Positions 6,353 to 37,476 of a DNA stretch of 64,000 nt are shown here, piece after piece. The stretch's first letter is position 1; each line of letters opens with the position of its first letter. Position numbers and translations under genes: made by a program. Source of the stretch: Mytilus trossulus. Taxonomy: Eukaryota. The DNA is taken from the NCBI RefSeq assembly GCF_036588685.1, contig NC_086382.1, forward strand, positions 72,664,001 to 72,728,000, written 5' to 3'. The notes beneath the pieces were generated by a model. That model was given only the letters and a program-made list of their open reading frames with translations. It was not told where the DNA came from and made no database searches.

Positions 6353-6395
6353 GCATCACTGATGAGTCTTATGTAGACGAAACGCGCGTCTGGCG
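6353..6395 (+). ncRNA. Minimal type I hammerhead ribozyme within a dispersed repeat (~6223-6430)
   Basis: gcatca CTGATGA gtct-tatgt-agac GAAA cgcgcg TC tggcg: intact core, 4-bp stem II, palindromic stem III. Confidence 0.8.
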
Positions 6396-6554
6396 AACTG
6401 AATAATAATCCTGGTACCTTTGATAACTATAAATATTATCAGTAGGTATAAAGATTTTGTCTGAGCAACTAAATTAATTCATGTTACATATAAAACAAAA
6501 TTATCAAAAAAAAACCAATTCATATTCTTTCTGACTTAAAATTGCTCAAACAGT

Positions 6555-9815: not shown

Positions 9816-11024
9816 CTATTTGCAAACGAAGTCGCTAGGTTTAATATCGTCCCATGCCTTTCCAGCTAGCTTAGCAGGTCCGTCACACTTAACAAGATGT
9901 GCATCCGGGATTCTAAACGGACCTTTGTCCATAATTTCACGTAACCATTTCAGATGGCAGTCACACATCCATGGGTTTCCGGTGATAGACACAGCTACCA
10001 GTTGTGGTAAAAACTGTGTCTCTAGCACTCCAGATTCCAATGACGCAAGTTTATTGAAGTCTAACCAAAATATTCTGAGGTTTTTTAACGAATTAAATGT
10101 TCCATTTTGAATTTTGCTGATATGATTACCCGACAACCATAATGTATCTAATGACTCAAGACCGTTGAATTTCATTTGTGTTACTACTGACACGTTGTCA
10201 TTGGCAATGTTTAGTTCATATAGGTTGTCCAATCCTTTGAATGCATTATCCTCTAATGTTGTGTACGCACCTTCCCATAATAACAGATGAGTAAGATTTG
10301 TTAGCCTCCTGAAAGCGTTTGATGGAATAACGGTAATATTGTTCCCAAGGATACTAAGAAAATTCAACGAAGAGGGAAAATATGACATATCCGGAAGGGT
10401 TCTAATCTTGTTGATACTTAGATCTAAATGTGTCAGATTGATGTTTTTCATAAATATGCTTCTACTAATGCTGCCATCTAGTAACCTATTTCCACTCAAG
10501 CTTATTTCTGTAACACTGGATAAAGGATCGAATGTATGTTCCTCGATAAACGATATGAGGTTGTCATTTGCATACAAATAAATGATGGACGTAGAATTCA
10601 CGAAATCGTTTACTTTTAGTCTAGTTATATGATTATAGAAGATGGTCAATCTTAACAAGTTAGGCGGGAGTTCTCGTGGTATTAACGTGAACAAATTAGA
10701 TGACAAATCAAGAGTCTCTATAGTAGATATTCTCAAGCTACCATTTTCTATACTGTTTTCATTCAGTTGGTTTCCATTAAGTTGAAGATTTTTTAATTGG
10801 TATAACCCCTGAAAAGCAATTTTGGGTATATGGCTGATTTGGTTAAAGTTAAGATTTAGGTTCATTGTTTCTTTTGGTAAATCTTGTGGCACTTCTGTTA
10901 TTCCTTTGCCGGTACATGTGACAGTAATACCAAAGCAGGTGCACGGTTGTGGACATTTGTCTGCTATTATAGTCGTTGATACCAGAAGGCACAGGAGTGT
11001 TACTTGTTTGATAAATGCCATCAT
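9816..11024 (-). CDS. Secreted LRR-only protein, paralog 3 (probable start MMAFIKQ at 11024)
   Basis: Same architecture. Acceptor ttacag| at 11049 makes the ORF-track extension to 11093 intronic; the first ATG after the acceptor is 11024. Confidence 0.9.
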   Translation of the reverse strand: MMAFIKQVTLLCLLVSTTIIADKCPQPCTCFGITVTCTGKGITEVPQDLPKETMNLNLNFNQISHIPKIAFQGLYQLKNLQLNGNQLNENSIENGSLRISTIETLDLSSNLFTLIPRELPPNLLRLTIFYNHITRLKVNDFVNSTSIIYLYANDNLISFIEEHTFDPLSSVTEISLSGNRLLDGSISRSIFMKNINLTHLDLSINKIRTLPDMSYFPSSLNFLSILGNNITVIPSNAFRRLTNLTHLLLWEGAYTTLEDNAFKGLDNLYELNIANDNVSVVTQMKFNGLESLDTLWLSGNHISKIQNGTFNSLKNLRIFWLDFNKLASLESGVLETQFLPQLVAVSITGNPWMCDCHLKWLREIMDKGPFRIPDAHLVKCDGPAKLAGKAWDDIKPSDFVCK

Positions 11025-13731
11025 AAAAAAAGTCTTAGGAGATAAGAACCTGTAAGAGATGAAATTGTGATATCTGTAGTGACGACTTTTCAAATATTAT
11101 TGATGTTCTTTTCGAATATATGTATACCTTATGACCAACTTAGTAGTCAACACTTCTGGTTGACATGAACTAATTTTGACATGGTCAAAATAATAAATAA
11201 ACTGTTTATAAAATAAAACAAAACAAAAATAAAAATATTAATAGATTTCTACCACCGATATAGATTATCTAAGTATATTTGTATTTGGCAAAACCTTTAT
11301 AATTTTGTGCTTTCAATGTTCTTCGCCTTCATATTTTATTTAGTCTTTTTTATTTTTTTTATTTGAGCGTCACTGATAAGTCTTTTGTTGAGTAACCGCG
11401 CGTTTGGTTCAAACTTTAAACTTGTTATCCACGATTAGTTAATTCGAGAATTAAATGTACAGTATCCCCCGTAGTGCATTACCATTACCCTGTTTCATTA
11501 ACTTTAACTAAACTCAATTATGTTGGATGTTTTTATTTCCGTCTCTTGTATAATGAGAAAAATTGGATGCCCAAATATTTTAGCCTATGGTATCAATCTC
11601 TCAAGGAACGTTATTTGTCAATAATTGTCCCTTGTCCATCAGAATAGTTTCCAGATAAATAATAAAATTGCAATTGGTTTGTAACTCTGGTATAGACATG
11701 TACATCACAGGGGTATTACTAGTTAGTGATTCAAAACTTTATTCTGGTATTTAAATATTAAAAACGTATGTTTCGTTGAAAATATATTGACAAGGTTTTT
11801 AGATTCATTTTAATGGTTTTTGATCACCCTTAATGTGCAAAGCTCCTATTATAAAATATATCGAGCAATATACCTGTGTAGCAATTCTTTGTGTTGTTTT
11901 CAACCTACATAACAGTTATAATACACATAAAAGATGTTTGCCTAAATAACAAGTTTCAACGCCATTCGTTGGTAATGCGATTTAGGAGATACATGTATTG
12001 TTTTTAAGCTCCAAGTGCCTCAATTGGTGATTCGATGGTCGCGAATAAAGTTTACTATCGACAAGTTTGCGGTGCCAATGAACGGGTATTTGCATCATCA
12101 AATCCCAAATTGAAGCCGTCGGAGCTAAAAATGCAACATTGTTATTCCCATTCTAATGGAACGGACAGATATCAACCTTAAATAGTACATTTATAATATG
12201 AAATATGTTGTCTGCGTTTGTGCATATACGTTTTCATCTACCCAAATCAAACCAACATCTTACGTTTATTTTAATAATTCTCCGTTTTTACCGCTGGACC
12301 GCATAACCACTGTCAAAATACCGAGGTTACCATACATCCAGCAGACAAAGTTGACCTAATCAAGAGCTTGTACGAGGTCGATACCGCTGCTGCCTGGTGG
12401 ACGATGAGAAACATTGAACATCATTCACCTGAGTAGCAAGAGCACACCTCCTCCTTCCAAAAGATTGCATTTGGTCGACATCGATGATAGTGGACTATGG
12501 AATAACAAGGGTACCATCCATCCAATTGCCTGAGCTGTCCTGATTAGACTCTCATCTAGCGTTTGGATGAAGTCGTAGCGGAGGAATAAACATAAACGGA
12601 TGGTACCATATACTCAGTAGCCAGAGCTAATCTGATTTAATTGAAATAGTTTGGCCGCATATTTACAGTTTATGATTACGTAGCTGTTTTCAGTGTTTTC
12701 TTCTGGCAATGTAGATCTAAGTTTGTGTTGGGTTTTTCACATTTTTATTTTCTAGAACGATTTGCTTATGTTCGTAGCTTCCAAAATTATAGCAAGTTGT
12801 TGGTGCAACAATGTGGTATTTTGCGTTTGTATTAACTTATTGGTAGTATATTAACACAATAACGCGTCAAAAATAAGTTTCTACTTACAGAAAGGTTAAA
12901 TTCTTCGGATATAAACCAGTTTTGACAGCCTTATACGATATATTTATCTTATCTTTATACAGTATAGAATATGTCTATACTGATAAAGTACCTTTTCATA
13001 TGTAGAACGCTTTTTTCTCTCAATGGAAATGAATTCCAGTTAAAAAAATATTGTTTGAACATTACATTTGCAATTAGTTCTCTGTCTCATATATAGCATA
13101 ACATATTTTAACAGTAAACGAAAGCTTATTCGTCAAACTGTTGATTGTCAAGGAAAGCTGAATATACGTATAATAATGAATATGTAAATGGACGCGTATT
13201 TTAACATGTGTCGGTTCAAATTTAGTTTTCCCGGTTTGTTTGTTTTTTTGGTTTTTATTGCATACTAACGATACAAAGATTGTTGGATCAGTTCCACATT
13301 TTGACAATACATATCTTTTTATTGATTCGAGGTTTAAATATTGGTAAACTGAAAAACCTGACACCTACGCAGAAGAGTGAATGGACGAAAAGTGTTCAAA
13401 GTATAATCCAAAATTTGTTCATCAAAAGTCTAATTTTTAAATTGTTCTCCGGTTTTTTTTCGAACATATCATACTTTGATATATTTTGTAGAAATCTCTT
13501 ATTATTGAAAACCTGTAGATTATCGTGTTCACTTTTCGATCATAATAAAAAAAAAATGTTTTAAACTGTAGCATATCTCGTTAGAATTTATGCATTTCTT
13601 AACAAAATACCATAACTAATGTGAACAATTTTCGTACTACACATTTGTAAGAACCTACAAATAAGCTATAATTGGTTTTATTTTTACTCTCCAAAGAACT
13701 TGTCATTAAAGCATCTGTAATTAAACTGAAA

Positions 13732-15033
13732 TTAATTTTCGCATACAAAGTCCTCGGGTTTCAAGACATCCCATGCTTTTCCGGCAACTTTGGATGGTCC
13801 ACTACAAACAATAATATGTGGATACATTATAGTGTATGTTGCATTGTCCATTTTTTCCCTCAGCCATTTCAGGTGACAGTCACAAATCCATGGATTAAAA
13901 TCCATAAAAACTGAAGACAAACGTGGCATAAATTTGGTATCGAGGACTCCAGGGTCGAGGGTACTAAGCTTGTTATCACTCAACCATACATCTTGTATGC
14001 TTGTCAAGGAATGAAATGCTCCTGTCTCTATTTTACTTATCTTATTGTCGGTAAGGTATATTGTTTTTAATGCTGTTAGTCCATCTAATGTATGATTGGT
14101 AATCGGTGATGAAATTTGATTGTCCATGAAATTTACAATTGTTACTTTTGTTAATCCAAAGAATGCGTAATCAGCAAGAGTAGAAAGGGGACTATCCCGA
14201 ATCTCAATAACCTGGATGTTCGGTAGATGTCGGAAACCATATGATGGTATGACAGTTATGGGATTTCCAACGAAATCAAAATTTTGCAAAGTTGCAGGAA
14301 AATATGTCATGTTTGGAAATGTTTTAAGATTGTTGTATCTCAAAGATAAATACGTCAGATTCTGATTTTTAAAAAAGGCTGTTAGAGGTATGCTTCCGTC
14401 CTCCAACTGGTTGAAGCTTATGGCTATGTTAATAGCACCGGTCAATGGGTCGAATGCGTGTTCTTCAATCTTGCTAAGATTTGTATTACTTACAGTTAAA
14501 TACTGAATAGAAGGGTATTTAACAAAACTTGAGGCTGTCAATGTTTGAATTGGGTTATAAGCTATCGCAAATCCAATTAGTTTAGGAGGTAGTATTTGTG
14601 GAATTGAAGTGAATTTATTTATCGATAAATCCAAATTGGCAATGCTAGGTAAATCAAGTGCACCGTCTTGTATACTTCCTTCTTTAAACTGGTTATCTGT
14701 AAGATCAAGCGACTGAAGATGAATCAATCCGCTAAATGAATCTGTTGGTACTACTTTTATCTGATTCGATCCGAGATATAAAGAAACTGTCGTTATTGGT
14801 AAATTCTTTGGAATTTCGGTAATTCCTATCCCATTACAATACACTTCAGTATTTTCGGTTTGACATGTGCAAGGAGAAGGACATTCACCTGCTTGGGAGA
14901 TCGTGGTAAATAACATCAGATGAAGGTACAGGAGAACCATTATAACATCAGATGAAGGTACAGGAGAACCATTATAACTGTCATCATTGACCATCAGATG
15001 AAGGTACAGGAGAACCATTATAACTGTCATCAT
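13732..15033 (-). CDS. Secreted LRR-only protein, paralog 4; N-terminus disrupted by a tandem repeat (in-frame ATGs include 15033 and 14940)
   Basis: Intact LRRNT-LRR-LRRCT body. The acceptor tttcag| is at 16048, beyond the repeat array; expression is uncertain. Confidence 0.8.
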   Translation of the reverse strand: MMTVIMVLLYLHLMVNDDSYNGSPVPSSDVIMVLLYLHLMLFTTISQAGECPSPCTCQTENTEVYCNGIGITEIPKNLPITTVSLYLGSNQIKVVPTDSFSGLIHLQSLDLTDNQFKEGSIQDGALDLPSIANLDLSINKFTSIPQILPPKLIGFAIAYNPIQTLTASSFVKYPSIQYLTVSNTNLSKIEEHAFDPLTGAINIAISFNQLEDGSIPLTAFFKNQNLTYLSLRYNNLKTFPNMTYFPATLQNFDFVGNPITVIPSYGFRHLPNIQVIEIRDSPLSTLADYAFFGLTKVTIVNFMDNQISSPITNHTLDGLTALKTIYLTDNKISKIETGAFHSLTSIQDVWLSDNKLSTLDPGVLDTKFMPRLSSVFMDFNPWICDCHLKWLREKMDNATYTIMYPHIIVCSGPSKVAGKAWDVLKPEDFVCEN

Positions 15034-16041
15034 TGACCATCAGATGAAGGTACAGGAGAACCATTATAACTGTCATCATTGACCATCAGTTGAAGGTACA
15101 GGAGAACCATTATAACTGTCATCATTGACCATCAGATGAAGGTACAGGAGAACCATAATAACTGTCATCATGAAGGTACAGGATAACCATAATAACTGTC
15201 ATCATTGACCATCAGATGAAGGTACAGGAGAACCATTATAACTGTCATCATTGACCATCAGATGAAGGTACAGGAGAACCATAATAACTGTCATCATTGA
15301 CCATCAGATGAAGGTACAGGAGAACCATTATAACTGTCATCATTGACCATCAGATGAAGGTACAGGAGAACCATAATAACTGTCATCATTGACCATCAGA
15401 TGAAGGTACAGGATAACCATAATAACTGTCATCATTGACCATCAGATGAAGGTACAGGAGAACCATTATAACTGTCATCATTGACCATCAGATGAAGGTA
15501 CAGGAGAACCATAATAACTGTCATCATTGACCATCAGATGAAGGTACAGGAGAACCATTATAACTGTCATCATTGACCATCAGATGAAGGTACATGAGAA
15601 CCATAATAACTGTCATCATTGACCATCAGATGAAGGTACAGGATAACCATAATAACTGTCATCATTGACCATCAGATGAAGGTACAGGTGAACCATTATA
15701 ACTGTCATCATTGACCATCAGATGAAGGTACAGGAGAACCATAATAACTGTCATCATTGACCATCAGATGAAGGTACAGGAGAACCATTATAACTGTCAT
15801 CATTGACCATCAGATGAAGGTACAGGAGAACCATTATAACTGTCATCATTGACCATCAGATGAAGGTACAGGAGAACCATTATAACTGTCATCATTGACC
15901 ATCAGATGAAGGTACAGGAGAACCATTATAACTGTCATCATTGACCATCAGATGAAGGTACAGGAGAACCATTATAACTGTCATCATTGACCATCAGATG
16001 AAGGTACAGGAGAACCATTATAACTGTCATCATTGACCATC
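14914..16041. repeat. 46-bp minisatellite, ~24 units plus one 32-bp partial unit, derived from the start codon/signal-peptide sequence of paralog 4
   Basis: Minus-strand unit gtcaATGATGACAGTTATAATGGTTCTCCTGTACCTTCATCTGATG, head-to-tail with no spacers. One unit near 15170 has a 12-bp deletion. Confidence 0.97.
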
Positions 16042-16488
16042 AAGTGTGCTGAAATAAATTCAACTTTGAAGTTATTTTGTTTCTATAAGGTAACATTGAA
16101 CTTTCAGGGTTTTGACCGCAAGTCGGTTTATTTTCCAATTTCAGCCCAGGTCTAGATATCATAATTGGTCAAAGGTTTTACCTGACGGTAAAATAGATTT
16201 AAAGTTGAAGCAAAATTTTATCTGCAGTACAAATGAGATATTGCGCATCAAGCTTTGGCGATCGTCAGAATGTTAACAAAATTTGGCAATTGCGCTTGAA
16301 GTCTTGGTTGTTTTCAGTCTAATTGTTTTTGTATATTAGAGGATACAGAAATTTGATAATGACGTATTAGAATAATTACTACTGGTTGTACTTTCTTAGC
16401 TGTATTTGGCAAAACGTTTAGGAATTTTGGTCCTCAATGCTCTTCAACTTCGTACCTTTTTGGGCCTTTTTAACTTCTTTGGATTCAA

Positions 16489-16532
16489 GCGTCACTGATG
16501 AGTCTTTTGTAGACGAAACGCGCGTTTGACGT
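16489..16532 (+). ncRNA. Minimal type I hammerhead ribozyme within a dispersed repeat (~16395-16572)
   Basis: gcgtca CTGATGA gtct-tttgt-agac GAAA cgcgcg TT tgacgt; GUU cleavage triplet, stem I fully paired. Confidence 0.8.
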
Positions 16533-17362
16533 ATATACTAAATTTAGTCCCGGTATCTATGATGAGTTTATTTCTAACGTTTTACAATTTCTCACGTTTT
16601 GGTACCGAGCGAACTTAATAAAACACGTTTTGTAATGTCATAGTAATCATTTTGATATCAATACAATTTTTTTTTAATATGAAATTACAAAGCAAAACAT
16701 TTGTGCCTTCTTCAAATGTGCTTCATACTCTATGTGTAAACTACTCTTGAAATATTACGTTACAAGGTAAACCAATTTCATCAATATAACATTCACAACC
16801 GCTTGTCTTCATGATGTAGTCGTAAATGTATAAATTCTCTTTTAGTATCAAGTCGGTGATGGGTTTTTTTCGTAACTGCTATGTGACCTTTAGACAAATC
16901 ACTACCGTTTAAGAAGAACATAACACGTTAACAGTATCTCTTAGTTGAAAATAAGCTTATATTGAGTAATGCATAAAACTAATAGTATATATATCGTAGC
17001 AAAATATATTAACTTGATGTGATATGTATACTTACATTGTAAACTTAAGTCAAAATAGATGTGTATATTATATACTATTATCTTTATTTGTCAAACACTC
17101 TTGTTATAAATATATACACAAATCTACACATATCTAAGATATATACACAAATCACCAATTATTTCATATATCATAAATTTATCAAACCAAAGCTAGACTT
17201 TTGCCATAATTAGCTTTACAATAGCGATTATAATACTAGTATGTTTATGAAGTCTTTGTAATATGTTGAATAGAGCTTATATTTTTGTTTGAAGTAATTC
17301 TCATTTTCTACCTATTAACTCACAATCATGACAATAAACAAGAATTCGTTGCAATTTCTGTT

Positions 17363-18604
17363 TTATTTACAAACAAAATCACTTGGTTTAAGATCCGCCC
17401 ATGTCTTTCCCGCGACATTGAGAGGCCCTGCACAGTCAGTAAGACTAGGAGAGCCTACTTTGTAAGAAGCATTGTCCATTTTCTCCCTCAGCCATCTTAA
17501 ATGACAATCACATGTCCATGGATTTCCGTAAATATAAACTGCTGATAATTTCGGAATAAACGTTGTATCCAGTACTGCAGGCTCTATTGCCATCAATTTA
17601 TTCTCACTAAGTCCAAGTTCTTGTAGATTTTTCATAGGATAAAAAGCTCCTGCTTCAATTTTAGAAACGTTATTTATGTCTAGTGACAAGCCTTGTAGTG
17701 ACACCAGACCATTAAATGTTAAATGTGTTATTGTACCCGACAAATGTCCTTGACTTAAATCAAGGAACCTTAGATTGTCTAAGCCGAAAAACGCATTGTC
17801 TTCAATAGAGTTAATGGTTCCCTGTGCTACTGCCAAGTTTGTTAGGTTCGACAATGATTTGAATGCATATGACGGTATCATTGTTATCTCGTTACCATAT
17901 ATATTTAATTTTTGTAAAGAACTTGGAAGATAGGATGTATCTGGTATAGCTTGCATCTGATTATAGTTTAAACTCAATTCATTTAGCTTCAAATTTTTGG
18001 AGAACGCTTTCGGACTTAAACTGCTATCGTTAAGACTGTTTGAACTTAAGTCGATCACTCGAACATTTATCAATGGATCAAAGGCATGTTCCTCGGCTGT
18101 ATATATTTGATTTGCGAGCATGTTAAGGTATTGTATGGATGTTGCATGTACGAAACTATTGGTCTTAAGTGTCGAAATAGGGTTGTTGTAGAAATTCAAA
18201 GTTAAAAGTTTTGGTGGAAGTTCTTGTGGAATTGAGGTAAAGAGATTTGCCGACAAGTCTATCATGTCTATGCTTGACAAATTAAATGCTCCTCTTTCAA
18301 TGCTATTATCTTGTAACTTATTTCTTGTCATGTCTATGTAACTAAGCTGGTATAGTCCATCAAATGCAGCCTTCGGTATGTGCGAGATTTCGTTGGACCT
18401 TAGAAGCAATGCTATCGTATTTCTGGGTAAACCTTTTGGTATTGCTGTTATCCCTGTTTGGTTACACACAACAGTTGTGTTATTATATAAACACCAGCAT
18501 GGTGACGGACACGGATCAGATAAGCAGTACTGTAGACACAGGAGAACTAAAATGACTGCAATTTGCTTCAATACTGTTAACATTCTTGTACGTACTTTCC
18601 ACAT
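17363..18604 (-). CDS. Secreted LRR-only protein, paralog 5 (probable start MWKVRTRM at 18604)
   Basis: Same architecture (CPSPCWC, NPWTCDCHLRWL, DFVCK*). Acceptor ttgcag| at 18613; the ORF-track start is a TTG in the intron. Confidence 0.9.
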   Translation of the reverse strand: MWKVRTRMLTVLKQIAVILVLLCLQYCLSDPCPSPCWCLYNNTTVVCNQTGITAIPKGLPRNTIALLLRSNEISHIPKAAFDGLYQLSYIDMTRNKLQDNSIERGAFNLSSIDMIDLSANLFTSIPQELPPKLLTLNFYNNPISTLKTNSFVHATSIQYLNMLANQIYTAEEHAFDPLINVRVIDLSSNSLNDSSLSPKAFSKNLKLNELSLNYNQMQAIPDTSYLPSSLQKLNIYGNEITMIPSYAFKSLSNLTNLAVAQGTINSIEDNAFFGLDNLRFLDLSQGHLSGTITHLTFNGLVSLQGLSLDINNVSKIEAGAFYPMKNLQELGLSENKLMAIEPAVLDTTFIPKLSAVYIYGNPWTCDCHLRWLREKMDNASYKVGSPSLTDCAGPLNVAGKTWADLKPSDFVCK

Positions 18605-19862
18605 TTCAAGTATCTGCAACAGATTATAACAATGAGAGAAAAATTGCTTTTATACATTTCGCAATAATAATATAATAAGTCCGGGTGCGGAATTATTTCG
18701 TTGTGTTGAAGACCCTTTGGTGGCCTTCTGTTGTTTTCTGCTATATGGTCGGATTGCTGTCTCTTTGTCACATTCTACATTTCCATTCTCAATTGTATCA
18801 GTATATATAAAAGTATATACTACGATAAAGATCCCAAGGAAGCTGTCACACTAATTTTCCATATGGAAAGGCACTTAAAACAAGTGACGGAATTGAGTAA
18901 TCATTCGGGATGCTCGGATCTCCTACTTTTTTTTATATTGATCCGCTAAATAGGTTGATATATGGAATAGAAATTGGCCATATAAATGTAGCCATTGAAT
19001 AATACCAATCTATAAGCATGTCAGCGTTGCATGGATGCTTTACGTATTATTCAATGGCTATTTTTTGTGCTTTTATATAAAAAAAAATATTCTGTGACTT
19101 CAAGCGTATGCTATCAATTATAATGTATGATATTTATGCAGATCTATACTTACGAACCTTGTTTACAATTCTATTTCGTTAATGCCTTATCTCTCTGGTT
19201 AGGTGATTATCCCGTAATATTATAGATAAAGTTCTTAATTTTACAACGTGAGACGTAGCAATTTAGGTTTTATTTTAAACTTTGAAATCCATGGGAAGAT
19301 ATAGGTGTATTTTTTTTTCTTTTTGGAAGTGTGATAGACAAGAATATTTTGGTATTTTTAATATATTTATTTTTTGTTGGAATGGGCTTTTGATAAAGAA
19401 AATTTGTCTTCATAAGTTGTGATCACTGCAGAGTAGAATTCAGTTTTTCTTCTTTAGTCACATAATTCAGTCTTATTTTAAAATAATATACTTAATATTA
19501 ATAAGTTTATTTCAATTCAGGCTCATGGCTTACCTTTACAAATTGTGTCTAGGATTGAGGGTTGTCTCATTGGCACTCATACCACATCTACTTATATCTA
19601 TCAAATAAGGGTAAATTGAAAAATTCTAAATCTTACATTATTTTTACTGTACTTCTTCTTCTTGGTATAAGCCTCCTTTAATTAGGAGCACCTCCAAATA
19701 TATATGGAGTTTTCCCTTAACTTCAAATTTTGTTTTTAAAATGATAAAACAAAAAATTTTCCAACATATGTACAGCACATATAAATAAACACTTAACAAT
19801 AGGAATGTCATGCAGGGCATATTTATATGGACCTTATTATTACAAAGTATTCCACCATACAA

Positions 19863-20122
19863 TAGATATAGGAAGATGTGGTGTGAGTGCCAATGAGACA
19901 ACTCTCCATCCAAATATCAATTTAAAAATTAAACCATTATAGGTTAAAGTACGGCCTTCAACACGGAGCCTTGGCTCACACCGAACAACAAGCTATAAAG
20001 GGCCCCAAAATTACTAGTGTAAAACCATTCAAACGGGAAAACCAACGGTCTAATCTATATAAACAAAACGAGAAACGAGAAACACGTATATATTATATAA
20101 ACAAACGACAACTACTGTACAT
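19863..20122 (-). mobile_element. Terminal 260 bp of a dispersed non-autonomous element, inverted relative to the copy at 21319-21578
   Basis: Near-perfect reverse complement of 21319-21578 (about 2 mismatches). The terminus ttgtctcattggca(c/a)tca(c/t)accacatctt recurs at ~19561, 23400, 25448(-), 30325(-) and 53262. Confidence 0.9.
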
Positions 20123-20999
20123 GTAGTGTACAAAATGTTTATAGGAGTTCTGTATTCAAATTTAACGGACTTCAACAAATGACAAGTATCAATTCGTTTA
20201 TTGAATACTAATTCATAAAATACAATGTAGAACACAACAGTATCTGTCTTCATAGCCATCAGGTTTTATGCTATGCATAACTCAAACTGTTTTTAATCAA
20301 AATAGTTCATGAACAAATTTGTATATACTATAGGTTTGTTTCTGACAATAAAACTGGATTTTAATCAAATAATAAAGTAAATGTTATCCGATGAAATTCA
20401 ATGTACAATGCAGGGTTAACCATCTACATGCACATGTACAAATGTAACAAAAAACGGAATGACATTATATGAAGATGTTTTTGTGTGTGTGTGTTGCAAT
20501 GTCGTTTATTTTTAGTTGCACTTCAGTGTTTTCCTCTTATAGTTGACGTGTTTCCATCAGTTTTAGTTTGTAACCGAAATTTGTTTTCTCTCAATCGATT
20601 TATGACTGTTGAACAGCGCCATACTTCCTCGTCTTCATTTGAAAAAAAAAACCAACTGCCAAGGACAAAATGTGTCTGAAATAAATAAGATGGTACAAGA
20701 TATGACTTACTCTGAATATTGAACCTGCACGTTCTGGTTATGTGGTGTCCATTCATCATAGAAACCATACCCGTGTGGTATATATCGTCTACCTCTGGGT
20801 TTGTAGGGGCCATAATCAGTACAAATATTCTGTAGCTGTGGGTAGTGTCGCTTTTCACGTTCTGAAATTAAAAATAAATCATCATGTTCAAGATCTTCTC
20901 TATAGTTAATGTTGATCATTTAACTGCACATGCATTGTATATTTATAAACACAGCCTCATGTACATGTATTTCTAAAAAAGCTACTGCTCTATAATTAC
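20120..20999 (-). pseudogene. Inverted ~880-bp duplicate of SPATS1 exon 2 plus flanking intron (source 24229-25108)
   Basis: Reverse complement of 24229-25108 with roughly 8-10 differences; exon and both splice sites intact. ORF-track peptides at 20707-20919(-) and 24309-24521(+) differ by one residue. Confidence 0.95.
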
Positions 21000-21019
21000 A
21001 AACCAAAGACCAAAAAGAT

Positions 21020-21578
21020 CTGTGTATTAAAATAATAATAGGCTAAGAATTTGTTTGAGAGCCTTTTGGTCATGACTGTTTGTCTCTAATATTTAATTAA
21101 CTGTGCATTTGTATTCAGATATCGCAGATCAAATTTATTCGTTCTTTGTGTAATCATACGTTTTTTGATTGAGTTAAGTCTGCTAATTGATATTTTATCG
21201 TATGTTTTTATATGTTGTGATGTTATGCTATTGTTTCAGAAAAAGGGAGAAGGTTTGGGCCCATTAAAACGTTTAATCCCGCTGCAAATGTTTGCACCTG
21301 TCCTAAGTCAGGAATCTGATGTACAGTAGTTGTCGTTTGTTTATGTAATATATACGTGTTTCTCGTTTCTCGTTTTGTTTATATAGATTAGACCGTTGGT
21401 TTTCCCGTTTGAATGGTTTTACACTAGTAATTTTGGGGCCCTTTATAGCTTGTTGTTCGGTGTGAGCCAAGGCTCCGTGTTGAAGGCCGTACTTTAACCT
21501 ATAATGGTTTAATTTTTAAATTGTTATTTGGATGGAGAGTTGTCTCATTGGCACTCACACCACATCTTCCTATATCTA
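21020..21578 (+). mobile_element. Dispersed non-autonomous retroelement-like copy carrying a twister-like motif
   Basis: Shares its terminus with other copies in the window and the cctgtc.aagtcagg core with the Penelope-like 3' region at 45350-45441. The 5' boundary is approximate. Confidence 0.7.
21236..21319 (+). ncRNA. Twister-ribozyme-like motif, P5-type permutation (best copy); predicted cleavage U21274^A21275
   Basis: P5 tcaga/tctga; P2 tccc/ggga; GA; T1 cct/agg; UAA; T2 gc/gt; P3 tgcaaa/tttgca; P4 cctg/cagg with loop U-CCU-AA-GU. No canonical P1. Confidence 0.7.
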
Positions 21579-21941
21579 AGATGTAAGAATTCAATAAAAT
21601 CTAAAAAGGCAGTTTTTCTTAGTGGAATGTTATGTACTTCATGATCAATGTATATTAAAAATCTTTTAAAAAGTTATAAAAAACTTGTTTTGCCCCTAAC
21701 AAAAGATTTAAAAAGGTTATATTAATGCTAAGCACTGTATAATAAATTGTATAAGGCTGTTGGGGATAGTGATTTTTTAAATATTTTAGATTCTTACAAT
21801 TATTAAATGACAGACTCTGTGTTGGTATTATATATGTCACTTATGATAATCATTATTCTCATTTGGTTGTCAATTCTTCCACTTTATTATATATGTATCT
21901 TTAGATAACTATATATATATATATATGCATATTATGTGATT

Positions 21942-22803
21942 CTATTTGTTGTCTAAAATTTTCAGTCTCTCTATATGCATTTGAAATAACATGTTTCTAG
22001 TTTTGTTTTCAATATTTTCCATGAATTTTTCACAGCTATCAAACAACTCCTTGTATTTTGAACAGTCTATTAGCAATTGAACTATTGCTGTTTTGTTCAC
22101 GAAGGTGCAGTTCCATTTTGCTGGAGTGATTTTATCAGTGATATATTTTCTTATATCAAGGAAATATTTTTCTCTCGTAGTACTGAGTATTGGACATGTT
22201 GTCATGAAATGAGTTATGTCTTCATTGGCGGTTTGACATAATTGGCAAGTTGGATCTACTGTATACGGAGTGAATTTATGTTGATCTGCCTGAAGTATGT
22301 ATGTTCCAGTTATCATTCTAGTCTTGATTATTGCTTTTCTAAGTTCAAAACCAGGCAAATGCTTTATTTTCCAAACTTGGTGATATTTATTGATCTCAGA
22401 GTTTTCCATATTCATGAATTTTAAGCTTGTTTTTCCTTCAGATTGTATTAAGGTCTTGTCCTTCCAAAATGTGTCTACTTTCAGTTTGATAGTTCTTTTC
22501 CATTGTTCTTTCTTTGGAACATTGCTTTTAAGTTGTATGATAGTTGGGAGTTCATACAGATCTAATATATCCATAACTCTAGAAAAGAAGCTATGTTTGT
22601 TATCAAAGTTTGTTGTTATTTGTCTTTCCATAAGCTGATGTATTTTTTCATTTTCACATGTAAGTAGTGCAAGTAGGAGAGACAAAACTCTTTTATGAAT
22701 TTCTGCTTCTATTGGTAGTGCTCCTAACAGTAGTAATACTGCAGAGTTAGCAGTTCTTTCTGGAAGAGATTGTATCTGGCGAAGATTTTTTCTCACTAAA
22801 TCA
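21942..22803 (-). mobile_element. 5'-truncated non-LTR retrotransposon, C-terminal part of the RT ORF
   Basis: LRQIQSLP..TAN.AV..LLG.LPIEA.IHKR post-RT motif and a CQLC...EDITHF...CP zinc knuckle; (TA)n downstream. Confidence 0.8.
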
Positions 22804-23654
22804 GGTATAATCAATCAATCAGCGTTGCTCGTTGACTTTGAACAGTGAACATTTTCAAATGGCGTTAAAAAAACGTCAAACGGGTAACGCATTTAAAGCT
22901 GTGGGTTTTGTTCAATAATTGTAAATCAATTCGTATGTCGTTTTTATATTAAATTAGAAAATTTCGAGTATTCAAGTTTTCCCATGTTATAATTTTTTTT
23001 GTTTCTAAATTGTCATAAATGGGGGAGATTTTTGTTTTCTGTAGCTAAAACCGCCCTTGCCTAAATGTAACTTGTGCAGTCGTTCTTACTGTAAAATCTG
23101 CATAGTTTCTATTACAACTAGCGTATGAAATCAGGGACCAGTTTTATATGGTTCTGATTAAACCTTGGGCTGGTATTTTTTTTCTATATTACGGTAGCAT
23201 ATAAACATAAACTTTAAAATAATTTAGTTAAAGAAAAAACAAATCACAGCCAGTCTGTGTCCTGCTGATAGAGATGTCGGTTCAAAGCTCATTAAAGCTT
23301 ATGCTTGTCTATGTTATATACCATGCCGACTCTAAATAAAGCTTATTTATTGTTATTTATATTTATAGAGCAGTTTTCTATTAATTCATAAATATACATC
23401 ACACCACATCTTCTTTTTCATTTATTCGGGCTGTTAACGAATTTATATATTGAAAGCTTTTTTTAAAAATCGATTTCCTGCTTATTTCAAAAATATTTTG
23501 TTAATAAAACCTTCGACTAATATTATAGATAAAAACCTATTTTTTTCAGTTTTTTTATTTAGAGTTACTTTTCCTGAAATCAATTAAGAGTGAAACGTCC
23601 GTCAGATGTCGTGAGAGAAAGTACCTGTTCATGCGTGTAAATCACCAAGGTCAC

Positions 23655-23706
23655 GGCTTCCTTTCCGGCACATGGCGGTGTTTAAACTTTTGTTTACATG
23701 TTTACA
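23655..23706 (+). promoter_or_regulatory. Probable SPATS1 promoter/5'UTR with ETS-like TTCCGG, YY1-like CATGGCGG and tandem forkhead TGTTTAC motifs
   Basis: Local CpG enrichment ~90-140 bp upstream of the ATG; short motif matches only. Confidence 0.35.
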
Positions 23707-23792: not shown

Positions 23793-26700
23793 ATGTTGCA
23801 CGTAACAACAGAAATTGGAAGACCGGGAAAGAAAGGTAAAATTAATATTAATTAATCAGCTGATCCAGCTGAAATATCTCCAGGTAAAAAGATAATAAAC
23901 AAACAAACTTCAATTAGAGTGGACATGGTAAACAAAACAAAAACGTGACACCAGCTCCATTAAGCTTTTTGCAGACATAATAGCCTTTAGGAGATGCAGA
24001 TCCATGATTTTGAAAAAAAGGGGGACAAACTATACAGTGTTAAAATGTAGAAGTACAAATGTAGCTGCGAATATATAGCTCTTAAGGTCATTTTGATATG
24101 TGCAGAACATTTATGTCGCCCAACAGGTTTAGAATAAACCTATTTACACATGTATACATCATTCATGTACACCATGTATAAAACGTTAAAACAGTCCTAT
24201 CAGGATTACAGTCTGTTTATTTTGGTTAGTAATTATAGAGCAGTAGCTTTTTTAGAAATACATGTACATGAGGCTGTGTTTATAAATATACAATGCATGT
24301 GCAGTTAAATGATCACCATTAACTATAGAGAAGATCTTGAACATGATGATTTATTTTTAATTTCAGAACGTGAAAAGCGACACTACCCACAGCTACAGAA
24401 TATTTGTACTGATTATGGCCCCTACAAACCCAGAGGTAGACGATATATACCACACGGGTATGGTTTCTATGATGAATGGACACCACATAACCAGAACGTG
24501 CAGGTTCAATATTCAGAGTAAGTCATATCTTGTACCATCTTATTTATTTCAGACACATTTTGTCCTTGGCAGTTTTTTGTTTTTTTTCAAATGAAAACGA
24601 GGAAGTATGGCGCTGTTCAACAGTCATAAATCGATTGAGAGAAAACAAATTTCAGTTACAAAGTAAAACTGATGGAAACACATCAACTATAAGAGGAAAA
24701 CACTGAAGTGCAACTAAAAATAAACGACATTGCAACACACACACACAAAAACATCTTCATATAATGTCATTCCGTTTTTGTTACATTTGTACATGTGCAT
24801 GTAGATGGTTAACCCTGCATTGTACATTGAATTTCATCGGATAACATTTACTTTATTATTTGATTAAAATCCAGTTTTATTGTCAGAAACAAACCTATAG
24901 TATATACAAATTTGTTCATGAACTATTTTGATTAAAAACAGTTTGAGTTATGCATAGCATAAAACCTGATGGCTATGAAGACAGATACTGTTGTGTTCTA
25001 CTTTGTATTTTATGAATTAGTATTCAATAAACGAATTGATACTTGTCATTTGTTGAAGTCCGTTAAATTTGAATACAGAACTCCTATATACATTTTGTAC
25101 ACTACATGCAGCATTTACAAATAATTGTATGTTGTCTGCTCCTCAACAATTCTTGGTTATCAATATGAAATAATTTTATGAGTCACATTTTATTAATCAT
25201 GAACAGAGCTGGTCCAGATTGGTCTTCCAAACTGAAATATATAGATCATCCTCAGAACCCAAAGTACCCAGCAGCAGAGATCTTCCCTGAGAACTGGAAA
25301 GCTATGAGACCATACCCATGTAAGTACTCATTGGTCATTTTGAACTTGTATTCTTAAGGCCATATATATATATCTAAGTGTTAGTGTAAGAACTCGGCTT
25401 TGAAGAAGTATATACATGTACAATACAATATGTAGATATACATGTAAGAAGATGTGGTATGAGTGCCAATGAGACAATTCTCCATCCAAAATACTATTTA
25501 TAAAAGTAAACTATTATAGTTCAAAGTAATGTCTTCAATATGTAGCCTTGTACATGTATATACAATGTATAGTGTCTGTTTTGATTTTTGAAGCCTATTG
25601 TTATCTGATATATTATATGTATGATTTATAAAACCACTTATAAATGATAATCTGCAATGAATGGTATTTACTTATAATTGTGTAATTGTCCTGATAAAAC
25701 TTAAAACAATAATAAAAAAAAGGAATGAGGACTACATCCAACTACCATTATCTGTGCCAATAATTGTCATGAGGTAATCAAATAGAAGAGGAATTCTGAA
25801 TGATTTGAAATAGAAAAAATCTTCCTTGGTGGTGTGAAAATTGTAAAGAATATCAGAAGGACATAAGAGCTATGGTTCCGCAGCTAGAATAAAAGGTATG
25901 AGAGTACACATCAAGGAGAGACCAACATAAAAACACAATAAACAAAAAGACTTAAAGGTAAACAGATAGTTTTCACTAACATACAAAGCTTTAAATCACT
26001 CTGGTTTAAAACAAATATGTATCTGATGATGTTTGCTGTTTTCTGTAGATATAATGAATAATTGTTTCCGTGTTTTTCAGTTACTTACAGGAGGTCGGAT
26101 AATGAGTGGCTATTAGACCCTGGACTGTCCAGTAAAGGGATGAAATGTACATTTAATGGTGTTCATAGAGCCACAGATACTTCCTCTGATGAAATCACAC
26201 ATAGAATGTTATATGGTAGAGGCAGAAGGGGTAATACTATAAGATAATGCAGATTAAGTTAAAATTAAGTTTGTTTGACATTTGATAATGGTAATGTTGT
26301 TCAATAATTAATCTGGACTCAAAGTAAATTATGCTTAAAAATTACTTACACCAATAATATTGCACTATAAAAGGTCATTCCTTTTTATATTTTGATGTCA
26401 GGTTCTAAATGAAATAGTTGGTGACCGTCTGCTGTTGTCTGCTCTATGGTCGGGTTGTCTCTTTGACACATTCCCCATTTCCATTCTCTATTTTAATATC
26501 ACAACAATTGCTATGTCGAAATTTAGTATATTGACTTGATTTTATAAAAAAAAAAAAAATGTTATGTTTCTAATTTTGTATGAAAATGCTTGTAGGTGCT
26601 TTGAAAAAAAAGTTGATTGCCATTAAAACTTAAGGGATAAATTTGTCTGTACATTCCCTCACTATATTGTACTTATAAAGTTTTAAACAAAACTATGTCA

Positions 26701-29700
26701 GATAAATACCATCTTCTTCCTGAAAAATAAAAAATCATGTGTTTGTTTTTTTATTTACAGAAGTAACCATAGATAAGAGGAATGGTCTACCCTATGCCTC
26801 TGAAGGGGACAAGAATTATCAGGCTCCAGAATATAGTTCAGGCTTTCATCGAGTCGGATCTTCCCTTCCACTGCCTCAGTTCGGGTAATTATTTATTAAT
26901 ATATTTGATATCTTTGTTGTACAAGTATAACTAAGTCAATGTTAAGTGGTAAGAAGAAGTTTTCAATGTGGACATTTAATAAATCTGTAAAAAATATATT
27001 TAAACAAAATTGAGGTGTAATAAGATAACTATGATTCTATAAATTTTATTTTTGTAGCACTGTCAGGTAGTTACATTCTGTGAATTAACATACATTTGTT
27101 TGTGTCTGTGTGTTGTAACAATAGTCATCCAAGATCTTGTCCTTTTGAAGAAGAGGATTTACTTTCCTTTTTTAACAGAATCACAATGTTAAAAATGTCT
27201 AATGATTTCACAATATTATGAGCAATAAAATAAGCAATTGGTGACCTCACTTAAAATTGGTTCATTTAATCATAGGAATTATTTCTTTTGACCAAAAGAT
27301 AATTCAGTTTTATGGAGAATATTTTAGTTTAAAATTTTTTGGCTATATATACATTCATAGCATTATTGACTTTATTGTTTCAATTTTTAAATCTCTATAA
27401 ACTCTTACAATATATATTACCAGAGGCTAAATAGATGAAGGAGAATAATAAAAAAATCTCTCTTATGATGAAGTCAAGAAAATTAATAATAAAACAAAGC
27501 TGGTGACAAAATTGATCAAAAGTTATTTCTGATCAACAATCGTACATTTTAAAGAAATTATTTGTTGAATGTTGTCTTTTCCCGTGTATAATAGATTAAA
27601 AAAGTCAAATCTGTGCAGGTTCTTAAATAAAAGATGAATATTTTTAATACACCCAAATGCATTAGAAAACTTAATTGAATTTTGGTCCAAGAATTTATTG
27701 GCATATCAACATTTTAAACCACTTTCTTTAACACTAATTGAGATTGTTTGTTGAATTCCTCTTTATTATGTTATTCTAGGAGGGAAATGGTAACATAATT
27801 ACAGTCATGTTTAGTTTTATTTAAATCTTATTTTATTGTAACTTTTTACCAGAACATTTTCATGTGAATTTATTATTAATAGCATCCCTGCTAAAAAGAG
27901 ACACACAGAGAAAAGAGTAAAATTTCTGTGTTTACAGGGGAGGTAATATTTTGTCACTAGATTTCCCATTTTTGCTACATTGTATATATAGTACCCATAT
28001 TTTAAAGGGTTTGATTTTTGTGGCCATTTAATAGAAAAAGTAATGAATTTATAGCTTCACCCACTGAAAAAAAAAGTATATCACAAGAAACATTGTTTTG
28101 CTCACTCCACCAGGGGAGAGGGTTCATGGATTATCCTTGTCAGTCTGTTAATCATTATGTTAGTCCTGAAATCTTAACAAAAGTTTACCTCAACCAAATG
28201 TTTGATTTTTGGTGGCACCTTTTTAACCTTTCTTGAGTAATGACTTTTGAAATAGTATATGTAAGGTTAGGCACAGTCTGTGCCCCAATTATTTATTTTG
28301 TAAAGAATTAAGCATGTAAAAAGTACATTTGTTTTATATACATGTATAAGAATCAATTATCATACATCAACTTTCCATTTTCTATAGAAGGAATTTGTCT
28401 GGAAAATAATATAAGAAACATACCTAATCTAGCTATTGATATACAAATGTAAGCCAACACTATAAATAGAATATAAAATCCTCTATCATTGACTTTGTAG
28501 TATATATAGGTGGAAAAAACCATGGCCATCTTTTGTTCACGTCTATGACTAGTAAGTTCCTGTAGAGAACTACATTTATAGGAAAGGGAATCATTTATAA
28601 ATAATATAGTTAGTCTTTGGAATATTTTTGGAGATATGGTTACTTCATTTAAAAATTCTATTGTATAGATATGTTTTTTTGTCTTTTCTTTCTTTTAGAA
28701 TTAAGATCTATTCATTTTAGATTTATTACTGATAATTGACCTTACTTTATATTATATATTAGATTTTAGTTAAAAAGAAGTTAATAGATATTAATTAATA
28801 AATCGAATGATAGGCTAGCTATAATAACAAAACCAATCTTACATGCATTTATAACATCTTTAAAAATTGTAAAACTTAATGTTTTATATCAAATCAAATG
28901 TAGCTATACAGTATAATAATGTTTTTAAATGACAGTGCTTGGTAAACGTATAAGGCTGGCTGGAAAAAAATATATTCATAACATATGTATTATATCATGT
29001 ATATTATGGCAATTCAGGTTGCACTATGATTAATTATTTATTCTTTCATTCTTTGAAAAATAACTAGTGTTTGCAATCTCTGTTTTGCGTCTGAAGATAT
29101 TTAAACGTCCCATCAAATGATTGTTTCACAGTAGTAAAAATTAATAAACTTAAAAGGTTTACGATAATTGATAATGTTTCATTAATCATATTTTAAAACA
29201 AAAACGTTTTAATTATAAATAGTGTAAGAGACTTCCTAACACTAATCCCTTTGTAGAAGATACTTATATATGTGTTTTATCCTTGTGTTGAATGTTATAA
29301 ACATATTAATACCAGTCCTGCCAGTTGTATTTCAGTCTCCTTTTGGTATGCCAGGAATTTATTGACATCTGAATTGTTAAATTAATTAAAGATAAGATAT
29401 ATATGGGCTGTGACTGGGTTCTGTATCAGAATAGATATTCTGTGATTCTTTTTATTAAGTGGGAACCATTTCAAAAGGATTGTTACTTTCATAAATATGT
29501 ATTAATCATTCATTTTATCACTTTACAAAATTAATGATGGGACTATATTTTGTTAAAAATTATAATTTCCTGGTATACCAAACAACAAAACCATTCCCAA
29601 TTTAACCTTGTGTATGTGTGTATTATATTGCTTACCATGTGTTGTGTGTTTGTTGCAGTGCTAATTTTGGCAAAAAACAAGTAGATACATTCGTACCCCT

Positions 29701-32689
29701 CCAGCCTTTACCATCCGTCAAAAGGTACCATATCTTTCTTATTAGCATGAATTTGTAGTATAATCTTTTAGCATGCACATTTCCTCTTTCACATGTTATC
29801 CTTTGTTTTATTTTTGTATTGTTACTCTTTATTGCATGCTCTTTTGATATACAATTTATTTATATTAACTGTCTATTTTCTGAAGCCACTATATATATAT
29901 AGGGTTTTTAAACCTGGTTGCAGTTGGAATACTGCATTTTCTTACTTTGCTATGCTCATTTTTGAAAATCAGAACCTAAAATCTTTCTGAATGTAACACA
30001 TATATAATTCAGCATACTTTTTACTAATTAACTTCTTATTTCTGTTTGAAAACACTTGGTTCTTCTGTGTATTATTCTAGCATGATCAACAACTACATGG
30101 TTTGTAGAAGTTTAGGGTATATAAATTGTGATTTACAGACACATTTCAATTAATGGTGATTGTTTTGAGGCAAAGAACTCAAAAATTATAATAGTTTTTT
30201 AGGATGTGGTATGATAGTGCAGAGCATTATGTTGGCTTGAAATAACAATTATTCTTCGTTATCTAAGCACCAACAGTAATTTTAACTGAATCATCAATTA
30301 TGTACTAAATGAAACTATAAAAAAAGAAGATGTGGTATGATTGCCAATGAAACAACTCTCCACAAGAGACCAAAAGGACACAGAAATTAACACCTATAGG
30401 TCACCATACAGCCTTCAAAAATTAGCAAAGCCCATGATTAGTTAATCATATTGTAGTCAAATGCAAACATAAGAATTAATTTATATTGCAATAGTTCAAA
30501 TTAAATGAACCATAAATGATACATGTACATGTAATAGTCATACTTTTAGTTTGAATCAAGTTAGAAAGCACTGAAAAAAGCTTTTATTTAACAGTTTAGT
30601 CTGACTTATTCAAATTATTTTTCATTTCATACTTGGTTCTTTATTACCTGTCAGAATGATTTAGTTAAGAAGGCTCGCGGGTATAAGAATTTCAGAAAAA
30701 AAAATCAACTTTAATTTTTCATTACAAAATTTATGTAGTACCTTTAGTAGTTGTAACTTTATCATATGGTACAAAAATCATTCCAAAATATCAATTTGTG
30801 TTGGCTCCATGTGACTTTTAAATTGTAGATATCAGTGAACAAGCTCCAAATTATCTCCCTTTGGTGCAAAAATGCCATTTTTCGGCATTAAAATTGAAAT
30901 ATCTTTTTTAACTTATCTGTGACCTATATGTTTTATTGTTATTTTCGAATAAGCTGTACATAAACTAAATAATTATAAAATTTAAGCGATTTCTGTAATT
31001 CAGTTCTTTTTTTATTTCGATATTACCGCTATTTCTCCTATTAGTTTAACAGAAAAAAAGGACATTAACAAAAGTGTATGCTTCTTTCGAAAGCAGATTG
31101 TGAGCGTAAATGAACGGTGACCCCATTTTTTTATTTCATTTTTCTATGAAGTATAAGATAAACTATAGAGAAATCCTATATTAAATTAAAAAAATTATTT
31201 AGACCCGCGAGCCCCCTTAACATATCTCTACATTACAGGATTACTGCCCAATTATTTTTAAAAAATCCAAAAAAAATTAATGAAAATTGAGTTATCTGCC
31301 CCTTTTTAGCTCACCTGACCTGAAAGGTCAAGTGAGCTTTTCTCATCACTTGGCGTCCATTGTCCGGCGTCTGTAAACTTTTACAAAAATCTTCTCTGAA
31401 ACAACTGGGCCAAATTTAACTCAATCATCATTGGGATATCTAGTTATAAAAATGTGTCGGATGACCTGGTCAACCAACCAAGATGGCTGCCATGTCTAAA
31501 AATAGAACATAGGGGTAAAATGTAGATTTTGGCTTATAGCTCTGTAACCAAAGCATTTAGAGCCAATCTGACAGGGGTAAAAGTGTTGATAGGTCACGAG
31601 TCAAGATCTATCTGCCCTGAAATTTTCGGACAAATCGGACAACCCATTGTTGGGTTGCTGCCCCCGTATTGGTAATTTTAAGGAAATTTTGCAGATTTTG
31701 ATTATTATCTTGAATATTATTGCAGAAAGAGATAAACTGTAAACAGCAATAATTTTCAGAAAAATAAGATCTACAAATAAGTCAACATGACCAAAATTGT
31801 CAGTTGTCTCCACTAAGGAGTTATTGCCCTTTATAGTCAATTTTTAACATTTTTTGTAAATTTTTAACAATTTTTGTAAATTTTAGAATTTTTTTCCACT
31901 CTTATTACTGGGCCAAGTTCATTATAGATAGAGATAATTGTAGCAACAAGAATGTTCAGTAAAGTAAGATCTACAAACACATCACCAAAACACAATTTTG
32001 TCATGAATTTATCTGTGTCCGTTGTTTAATATGCACATAGACCAAGGTGAGCGACACGTTATGTTCATGGTATCTTTTCTGGTGAATTTAATGTTGCTTT
32101 ATAATGCTGTTTACAGTTGTTTAAGATGATGCTTTGTCCATTAAACAAATAACAGAACCACAGTGTCTTTGTAGTATTTTTATTATGCTATTTGCATCAG
32201 CTTGAGCTTGAAAATAAAATATTGACATTGCAAATATCAATTAAAGAATTTTTACAAAGATTTTATTGTATTAATGTATTCAATATATAATTACTTATCT
32301 GTTTGTCTCATGATGAAATGACTGTTTTATCATGTTATAAGTTGTTTGGATAATTAACAAATCTGTGTATAAACGTAATTTAGATTTTTTATATATCTCT
32401 TTCAAAATGAAATTTTAATAACCATTTCTTATGTATTTTTTATTAAGAATAAAGTCAGGAAAAAACTAAAAACATACACCAGTACATAAAAATTGCAAAA
32501 TAAAAGTATTTGTAATCAGAAAGTAACTTGTTTCATTTTTTATATAGAGACACATTTAGAGAAGTAGAGAAAAGAAAACAGAAAGAAAATGAAATCAATG
32601 TGGTGAAAAATTTAGATGTATGGAAACCTGCCACACCACTGAACATTATACAACACAACGAGGAAGTGGCTGCTGCCACCAAAAAGTAA
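23793..32689 (+). CDS. SPATS1: Spermatogenesis-associated serine-rich protein 1-like, 7 coding exons: 23793-23835, 24367-24517, 25207-25319, 26081-26230, 26761-26884, 29659-29724, 32548-32689 (262 aa)
   Basis: All junctions are GT-AG with consistent phases (789 nt total). The C-terminus DKRNGLPYASEGDKNYQAPEYSSGFHRVGSSLPLPQFG...KKQVDTFVPLQPLP...ENEINVVKNLDVWKPATPL matches the SPATS1 conserved domain as I recall it (RNGIP...GD..Y.YPE.S.GFH..GS...DTFIPLEPLP...LD.W.PA.PL). Confidence 0.85.
30669..31216. mobile_element. Non-autonomous DNA transposon with TTAA TSD and purine-starting TIRs (Kolobok-like), in SPATS1 intron 6
   Basis: ttaa|gaaggctcgcgggt ... acccgcgagccccc|ttaa. Confidence 0.75.
31303..32057 (+). 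mobile_element. Helentron/HINE (DINE-1-like) non-autonomous element, 3' end truncated
   Basis: Starts in a T-run with tagctcacctgacctgaaaggtcaagtgagc (subterminal IR plus hairpin) and ends with the complementary aggtgagc. Confidence 0.6.
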
Positions 32690-36897: not shown

Positions 36898-36927
36898 ATA
36901 AAATTATAATTCTGGAACCTTTGATAA

Positions 36928-37476
36928 TAAAATTGAGAATGGAAATGGGGAATGTGTCAAAGAGACAACAACCCGACCAAAATAAAAAAACACAACAGCA
37001 GAAGGTCACCAACAGGTCTTCAATGAAGCGAGAAATTCCCGCACCCGGAGGCGTCCTTCAGCTTGCCCCATAACAAATATATACTAGTTCAGTGATAATG
37101 AACGCCATACTAATTTCCAAATTGTACACAAGAAACTAAAATTTAAATAATACAAGACTAACAAAGGCCAGAGGCTCCTGACTTGGGACAGGCGCAAAAA
37201 TGCGGCGGGGTTAAACATGTTTGTGAGATCTCAACCCTCCCCCTATACCTCTAACCAGTGTAGAAAAGTAAAAGCATAACAATACGCACATTAAAATTCA
37301 GTTCAAGAGAAGTCCGAGTCTGATGTCAGAAGATGTAACCAAAGAAAATAAACAAAATGACAATAATACATAAATAACAACAGACTACTAGCAGTTAACT
37401 GACATGCCAGCTCCAGACTTCAATTAAACTGACTGAAAGATTATGATTTCATCATATGAACATCAGGCACAATCCT
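36928..37476 (-). mobile_element. 5'-truncated 3' segment of a Penelope-like element, inserted into the end of a hammerhead repeat
   Basis: Reverse complement of ~45128-45677; flanked by the direct repeat tttgataa (36920-36927, 37477-37484). Confidence 0.75.
37166..37256 (-). ncRNA. Twister-ribozyme-like motif, P5-type, second family
   Basis: Minus strand reads ggttagagg tata gggg ga ggg ttgagatctcacaaacatgtt taa cccc gc cgca tttt tgcg cctg t ccc aa gt cagg ag cctctggcc. Confidence 0.7.

Follow-up and report, generated by a model that had tools for sequence, protein, structure and literature searches.

An inverted copy of a SPATS1 exon joined to a truncated Naiad-type Penelope-like element in Mytilus trossulus

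The window analyzed here is a stretch of 64,000 nucleotides from Mytilus trossulus (contig NC_086382.1, 72664001-72728000). Upstream of a SPATS1-family gene, and outside it, two ends of a Penelope-like element lie back to back, 35 bp of target DNA apart, and an inverted copy of part of the gene is joined to the left one, hereafter the arm. The features of the locus, together with the parent open reading frame (ORF) of the element, are the following.

19652-19862, minus strand: left part of the host repeat, 84-97% match to the paralogues L040-L045
19863-20122, minus strand: Naiad 3' end (the arm), 260 bp, 5'-truncated; its 3' terminus adjoins the left flank and begins exactly at the fixed 3' end of the family
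20120-20122: 3-nt microhomology between arm and donor
20120-21007, minus strand: inverted copy of 24221-25108, 888 bp, with 146 nt of intron 1, exon 2 and 591 nt of intron 2
20711-20861, minus strand: copied SPATS1 exon 2, 151 nt, identical to the donor exon, acceptor and donor sites intact
21008-21011: 4-nt filler at the internal junction
21012-21046: native target DNA, 35 bp, separating both element ends, 92-95% match to paralogues
21043-21046/48 (left) and 21576-21579/81 (right): target duplication of the right element, 4-6 bp
21047-21578, plus strand: Naiad 3' end (the right copy), 532 bp, 5'-truncated
21236-21319, plus strand: twister-like motif, P5-type order, no canonical P1, predicted cut 21274/21275
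21579-21808, minus strand: right part of the host repeat, 92-93% match to L040, L044 and L045
21942-22814, minus strand: LINE-like ORF remnant, 290 aa, zf-RVT with E 3e-5, below the Pfam cut-off
23793-32690, plus strand: SPATS1-family gene, seven coding exons
24221-25108, plus strand: donor segment in SPATS1
L036:1509-4622, minus strand, and L033:4700-7516, plus strand: parent Naiad ORF

Comparison of the window with itself gave an inverted match of 19863-20122 to 21319-21578 (99.2% identity, 2 differences in 260) and one of 20120-21007 to 24221-25108 (98.65% identity, 12 differing columns in 889). Arm and captured copy share CAT at 20120-20122, a 3-mer that occurs 234 times within 5 kb to the right on both strands. 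An earlier note, made from the sequence alone, had described the inverted 260-bp element end, its stop at 21319 as the last base of the closing stem of a predicted fold, and the CAT microhomology, and all three were borne out. It had also given an 880-bp SPATS1 copy from 25108 to 24229; the inverted copy with exon 2 is there, but it runs to 24221 and measures 888 bp. The filler at 21008-21011 might repeat the preceding 6-mer through slippage, or it might copy 21064-21071 by fold-back, the latter being suggestive at most because its 8-mer was also found in 160 of 9115 random 140-nt windows.

Six other loci, paralogues of the host repeat, match the 35 bp that precede the right copy. At 84-97% identity, these paralogues serve as a substitute for the empty site, in place of an orthologous empty allele, and allow the junctions of the insertion to be interpreted. 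In the six paralogues, 19652-19862 is followed by 109 bp missing from the window, then by 21012-21048 and by 21577 onward, so that, relative to them, arm and captured DNA replace 109 bp of target. From this order, the right copy can be recognised as an insertion of the usual kind, bounded by a 4-6-bp target duplication of its own. Both the duplication and the deletion that the earlier note had wanted sought at empty sites were thus obtained, and its picture of three contiguous parts had to be given up, since 35 bp of target DNA intervene, 109 bp are deleted, the target duplication is separate and the longer copy starts at 21047. The host repeat is probably the 3' UTR of a low-copy LINE-like element, a reading of its strand and nature based on its simple-repeat end and the ORF at 21942-22814.

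The element was compared with 1.30 Gb of genome. Copies of its family have a fixed 3' end and variable 5' truncation, and 4601 plus 193 matches extend to the region of -260 (counted from the 3' end). The segment 21047-21578 showed one difference from 29 of 29 fetched top copies. With TGA read as a sense codon, long copies contain a single ORF of about 1000 aa, in which a GIY-YIG-like motif comes first and reverse transcriptase (RT) motifs come last, both read by eye. A CxC linker, with UGA at the first C, and a DKA motif are present in both L033 and L036, giving the order GIY-YIG-like region, CxC, DKA, RT; a Pfam search with the read-through ORF returned no family. By this order the element classifies as a Penelope-like element of the Naiad type, in agreement with the class proposed in the earlier note. 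L036 has five in-frame UGA codons at cysteine-type positions, and the four covered by L033 are shared. The SECIS_1 model gave a full-length but weak match to the 3' UTR (L002:1152-1209, plus strand; 22.2 bits against a cut-off of 35, E 0.064). The parent element is therefore likely, as far as codon and motif positions tell, a Naiad that encodes a selenoprotein, of the kind known from clams and spiders. Both element ends belong to the youngest subfamily, as do 9 of 27 random copies. Each of the two differences of the arm recurs singly elsewhere, none of 40 scored copies has both, and a separate source element for the arm was not found among these 40 of 615 candidates. Older 3' fragments of the same element lineage, 77-83% identical, flank the locus at 19525-19601 (plus strand) and 25438-25550 (minus strand). 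In a young copy elsewhere (L097:1370-1761), the 5' end is joined directly to a second element stretch (-307 to -205), and this partial tandem begins near the predicted cut site.

The identity of the donor gene, named as SPATS1 in the earlier note, was supported by nine of nine homologues that carry PF15160 (61-76% identity; those named are from bivalves), and single SPATS1 exons gave no match to Pfam. The donor contains coding exon 2 at 24367-24517. The ends of the captured piece lie 99 and 146 nt from acceptors, neither at a splice landmark. On the minus strand, both splice sites of the copied exon are preserved, and a candidate acceptor of a leucine-rich-repeat (LRR) gene is located 2.1 kb downstream of the exon. 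When the copied exon was joined in silico to one downstream LRR exon, no fused reading frame resulted: the frame that offers start codons terminates two residues further on, the SPATS1 frame is short and has no start codon within the exon, and the frame that leads into the LRR protein is interrupted by stops inside the copied exon. With its 151 nt the exon is frame-shifting, and a new protein from the insertion appears unlikely. Of the exon shuffling envisaged before, the intact splice sites remain, but the exon length and the joined frames speak against it. Five single-ORF LRR genes of 411-435 aa lie in tandem at 3838-18649 (minus strand), and a 46-bp tandem array lies within their region at about 14.9-16.0 kb. 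At 23622-23690 (minus strand) there is a possible first exon, with a donor-like site, of a divergent transcript facing away from SPATS1; if this exon is real, the transcript could run across the insertion.

The junctions were not seen in contigs of six DNA runs (four per check), which does not prove that they are absent. In contigs of X1, X3, X4 and X7, which represent four other individuals, the donor continues into its own flanks. The mismatch at 24228 corresponds to an allele that other individuals share with the copy. Likewise, the bases of the copy at 20226, 20633 and 21000 are alleles in other individuals, and so is 20649-20653 in two runs; the difference at 20912 was absent from four of four runs. 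Judged by these alleles, the captured copy is from another haplotype than the adjacent donor. From 3 differences in 792 bp, about 10 crossovers would be expected in the 2.6-kb gap, an estimate that assumes a recombination rate equal to the mutation rate. Recombination since the insertion thus suffices to explain the haplotype mismatch, and for this reason trans capture from the homologous chromosome cannot be deduced from it. The 12 differing columns, several of them alleles of other individuals, and the lack of the junctions in all four runs would also be compatible with an assembly artefact joining two haplotypes. An artefact would hardly place the target fragments in empty-site order, together with a target duplication, a deletion and filler; moreover, the absence of the 20912 difference from all four runs is expected of an aged copy, and the crossovers account for the mismatch. 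We consider the artefact very improbable; the insertion looks real and rare.

Head-to-head pairs less than 150 bp apart are expected by chance about 0.07 times genome-wide for the youngest subfamily and 0.66 times for all copies. Young head-to-head partners were found in none of 67 rows within 1.5 kb and at one of 120 loci within 5 kb; 12 screened loci recur among the 67 rows, one of which is the reference copy. The left flank of the arm matches the T that follows most family ends and shares no base with the sequence after the local copy. Since the arm starts at the 3' terminus of the family and the flanking T matches the family, it was likely reverse-transcribed afresh. These data bear on a rearrangement by DNA alone, in which a stalled fork would have copied the 3' end of the right element and SPATS1 and returned to the target by three template switches, with no second retrotransposition. 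Events of fork stalling and template switching typically leave three junctions, a deletion and inverted local copies, and all are present at the locus; the 99.2% identity of the arm to the local copy and the rarity of head-to-head young partners also fit. However, the exact start of the arm at the element 3' end and the bases of the left flank are at odds with it, and we regard this explanation as improbable. We favour a single episode. Two independent insertions could also have produced the locus, since the right copy is whole in itself, target duplication included.

The right copy contains a motif resembling the twister ribozyme, and the closing stem of its predicted fold ends at 21319 (folding z-score -0.58). 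At gathering score, Rfam reported nothing in the window. The match to twister-P1 (RF03160) was weak (14.4 bits versus a gathering score of 67.2, E 5.1), and the twister P3 and P5 models gave no Rfam match. A motif search yielded 88 hits, 29 of them distinct, from about three repeat families. Among the 88, the first P2 pair is U-A in 66 and C-G in 19, the third pair of pseudoknot T1 is U-A in 66 and C-G in 15, and the first P3 pair is U-A in 67 and C-G in 19. These two-sided changes between families support the predicted P2, P3/P4 and T1 by covariation, with few independent events because the hits represent about three families. A P1 helix is not formed, both sides being U-rich with two short palindromes between them. 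P1 can be dispensable in twister ribozymes. With twister the motif shares UAA at the cut site, P2, GC, P3, P4 with an 8-nt loop and the pseudoknot partner; it differs by a score far below gathering and by the two short palindromes in place of P1 pairing. We therefore call it twister-like, with putative ribozyme activity. The palindromes in the P1 position might allow dimer pairing; they vary in sequence between families yet stay palindromic. An 8-mer palindrome overlapping the junction motif occurs 32 times in the window versus 5.1 expected, a six-fold excess. At least two further repeat families contain the twister-like motif (37163-37264, minus strand; 45340-45445, plus strand; L069, L128 and L130). 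One 550-bp repeat with the motif forms an inverted pair in the window (36926-37477 and 45128-45677, 92% identical, 8 kb apart). The accessible part of PMC10085705 makes no mention of Mytilus, and that of 10.64898/2026.07.22.740005 none of twister.

According to the earlier note, reverse transcription had stalled at the ribozyme stem, and truncations of the family should pile up there. We counted a truncation where three non-consensus bases precede a 21-nt core, with the position given from the 3' end; the counts are raw and not normalised, filters differ, denominators are not matched and control sites were not inspected. There were 71 truncations at -260, which corresponds to 21319, and 96 at -266, six bases upstream, compared with 9 at -250 and 16 at -359. 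At the predicted cut (-304) a harsher filter gave 9, and no excess was seen. Two ribozyme-free positions that also start with A reached 71 (-131, inside a small hairpin) and 47 (-167, two-base filter). A first count of 193 at -260 was discarded as inflated, since at 17 of 30 inspected sites the copy was not truncated at that base. Most of the pile-up disappeared under stricter filters and against controls; the stem is indeed a frequent stop, but so are the controls. Fetched sites contained true truncations in 35 of 40 cases at -260 and 74 of 80 at -266. The 3' edge of the stem is thus a common but not a special truncation point, and the stem as the cause of the switch finds no support in 71 truncations that are equalled at a ribozyme-free control. 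As other A-starting positions are also frequent stops, we infer that microhomology with the flank is a main factor in the choice of the truncation site.

For a screen of the 5' junctions, 120 loci were fetched, namely 40 hand-picked from the 71 at -260, a set that left out most apparent one-base deletions, and the first 80 of the 96 at -266. Eleven were not truncations, and the remaining 109 comprised 101 distinct sites. None of these 101 other sites showed local capture within 5 kb, the reach of the screen, beyond which captures would be missed. The same script recovered the present locus, which is the only capture among 102 insertion sites checked, and the 95% upper bound on the capture rate is 2.9%. 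Four short capture-like matches were rejected as three tandem repeats and one likely inverted-repeat element end. Stalling at the stem as a general route to capture, as once suggested, is therefore not borne out.

The nascent pre-mRNA proposed as template in the earlier note would imply that the RT, after starting the left cDNA on element RNA, changed to nascent, still unspliced RNA of SPATS1 and copied it from 25108 to 24221, and that end joining followed. Its polarity argument holds: the orientation is that of one cDNA copying SPATS1 sense RNA, although this is a one-in-two match that a DNA template gives half the time. SPATS1 is expressed in the germline of vertebrates. The switch point lies at the 3' edge of the predicted structure, where 71 and 96 truncations exceed two of the controls (9 and 16). 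The 71 and 47 truncations at the two ribozyme-free positions and the absence of capture at other sites truncated at this edge count against the switch, as does the lack of a splice landmark at either end of the copy. Marks of an RNA donor (splicing, editing, poly(A), an RNA end) were not seen in the copy; nascent RNA need leave none. Introns persist in Penelope-like elements, which have also transported host spacers and a host gene with introns (PMC3846280; PMC8557442, in the parts available), and same-orientation chimeras from two RNAs occur with L1 (PMC11702581, likewise in part). Taken together, we rate the switch to RNA as possible but not probable. More doubtful is the full scenario of a selenoprotein Naiad with an active P1-less twister in the place of the hammerhead of other Penelope-like elements, priming from both strands of one target, an RT jump to a nascent germline transcript and duplication of a spliceable exon.

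The explanation to which we would give about even chances is that the insertion was templated locally, with DNA as the template, while a doubly primed integration was under repair. The element nickase would have cut both strands about 140 bp apart, either within a single episode or shortly one after the other. The bottom-strand end would prime the 532-nt cDNA, followed by normal joining to target DNA, and the top-strand end at 19862 would prime a second cDNA that leaves its RNA after 260 nt. The free cDNA end might then anneal by 3 nt to a SPATS1 intron about 4 kb away and be lengthened by 888 nt in the direction of the break, in the manner of strand-annealing repair. Microhomology-mediated end joining would then connect it with the target, and the filler and the deletion would result. 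This reading is favoured because the six paralogues provide the empty-site order, because the arm starts at the fixed 3' end, where priming of reverse transcription would place it, because both ends belong to the youngest subfamily and chance pairs are rare, and because the donor is local and unspliced, with ends away from acceptors. It is also favoured by parallels with L1: in the accessible parts of PMC11702581 and 10.1101/2024.08.27.596794, DNA templates are given as the source of locally templated segments, and opposite-facing products are explained by two primed ends. Several points stand against it. The data fit a template of DNA and one of unspliced RNA alike, and the polarity is that required for RNA. 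The captured piece is 888 bp long and lies 3.7-4.2 kb away, whereas templated insertions of L1 are typically below 250 bp and within 15 bp of the site (10.1101/2024.08.27.596794, part available). Finally, a single episode has to accommodate a complete right copy that possesses a separate target duplication, and no junction-spanning read or contig was seen.

As a single rare event without a protein product, the insertion carries modest weight; the twister-like motif, in a clade reported without hammerheads, is the more testable lead. The following comparisons refer to the available parts of the cited papers. Naiads (Craig et al., 2021, PMC8557442) show the same N-terminal GIY-YIG, CxC, DKA and C-terminal RT in at least 3.8 kb, are likewise heavily 5'-truncated and often lack a clear target duplication; no canonical hammerhead is reported for them, whereas the family described here has the twister-like motif. 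An inverted 5'-truncated copy at the 5' end is frequent in Naiads, where it is immediately adjacent; at the present locus host DNA and 35 bp of target intervene. The origin of inverted ends in Penelope-like elements, and of the host DNA that they acquire, is described as an open question (PMC8557442), and the junctions reported here, with target DNA between two apparently primed ends, differ from the usual picture of adjacent inverted copies, which lacks such DNA. In Adineta vaga, intron-containing host DNA is likewise framed by Penelope terminal repeats (PMC3846280); there, the gene lies between direct pLTRs and was moved to a new locus with one target duplication, whereas here the capture is local and inverted and accompanied by a deletion. 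The templated and two-ended chimeras of L1 show the same copying of local DNA, opposite-facing products, microhomology, filler and target deletion, and at the present locus, too, a local genomic segment is joined to the cDNA 5' junction by microhomology. The L1 cases are somatic or from cell culture; here a different enzyme class is involved, the event is inherited and a whole exon was copied. The event is thus a variant of those known for L1 and Penelope.
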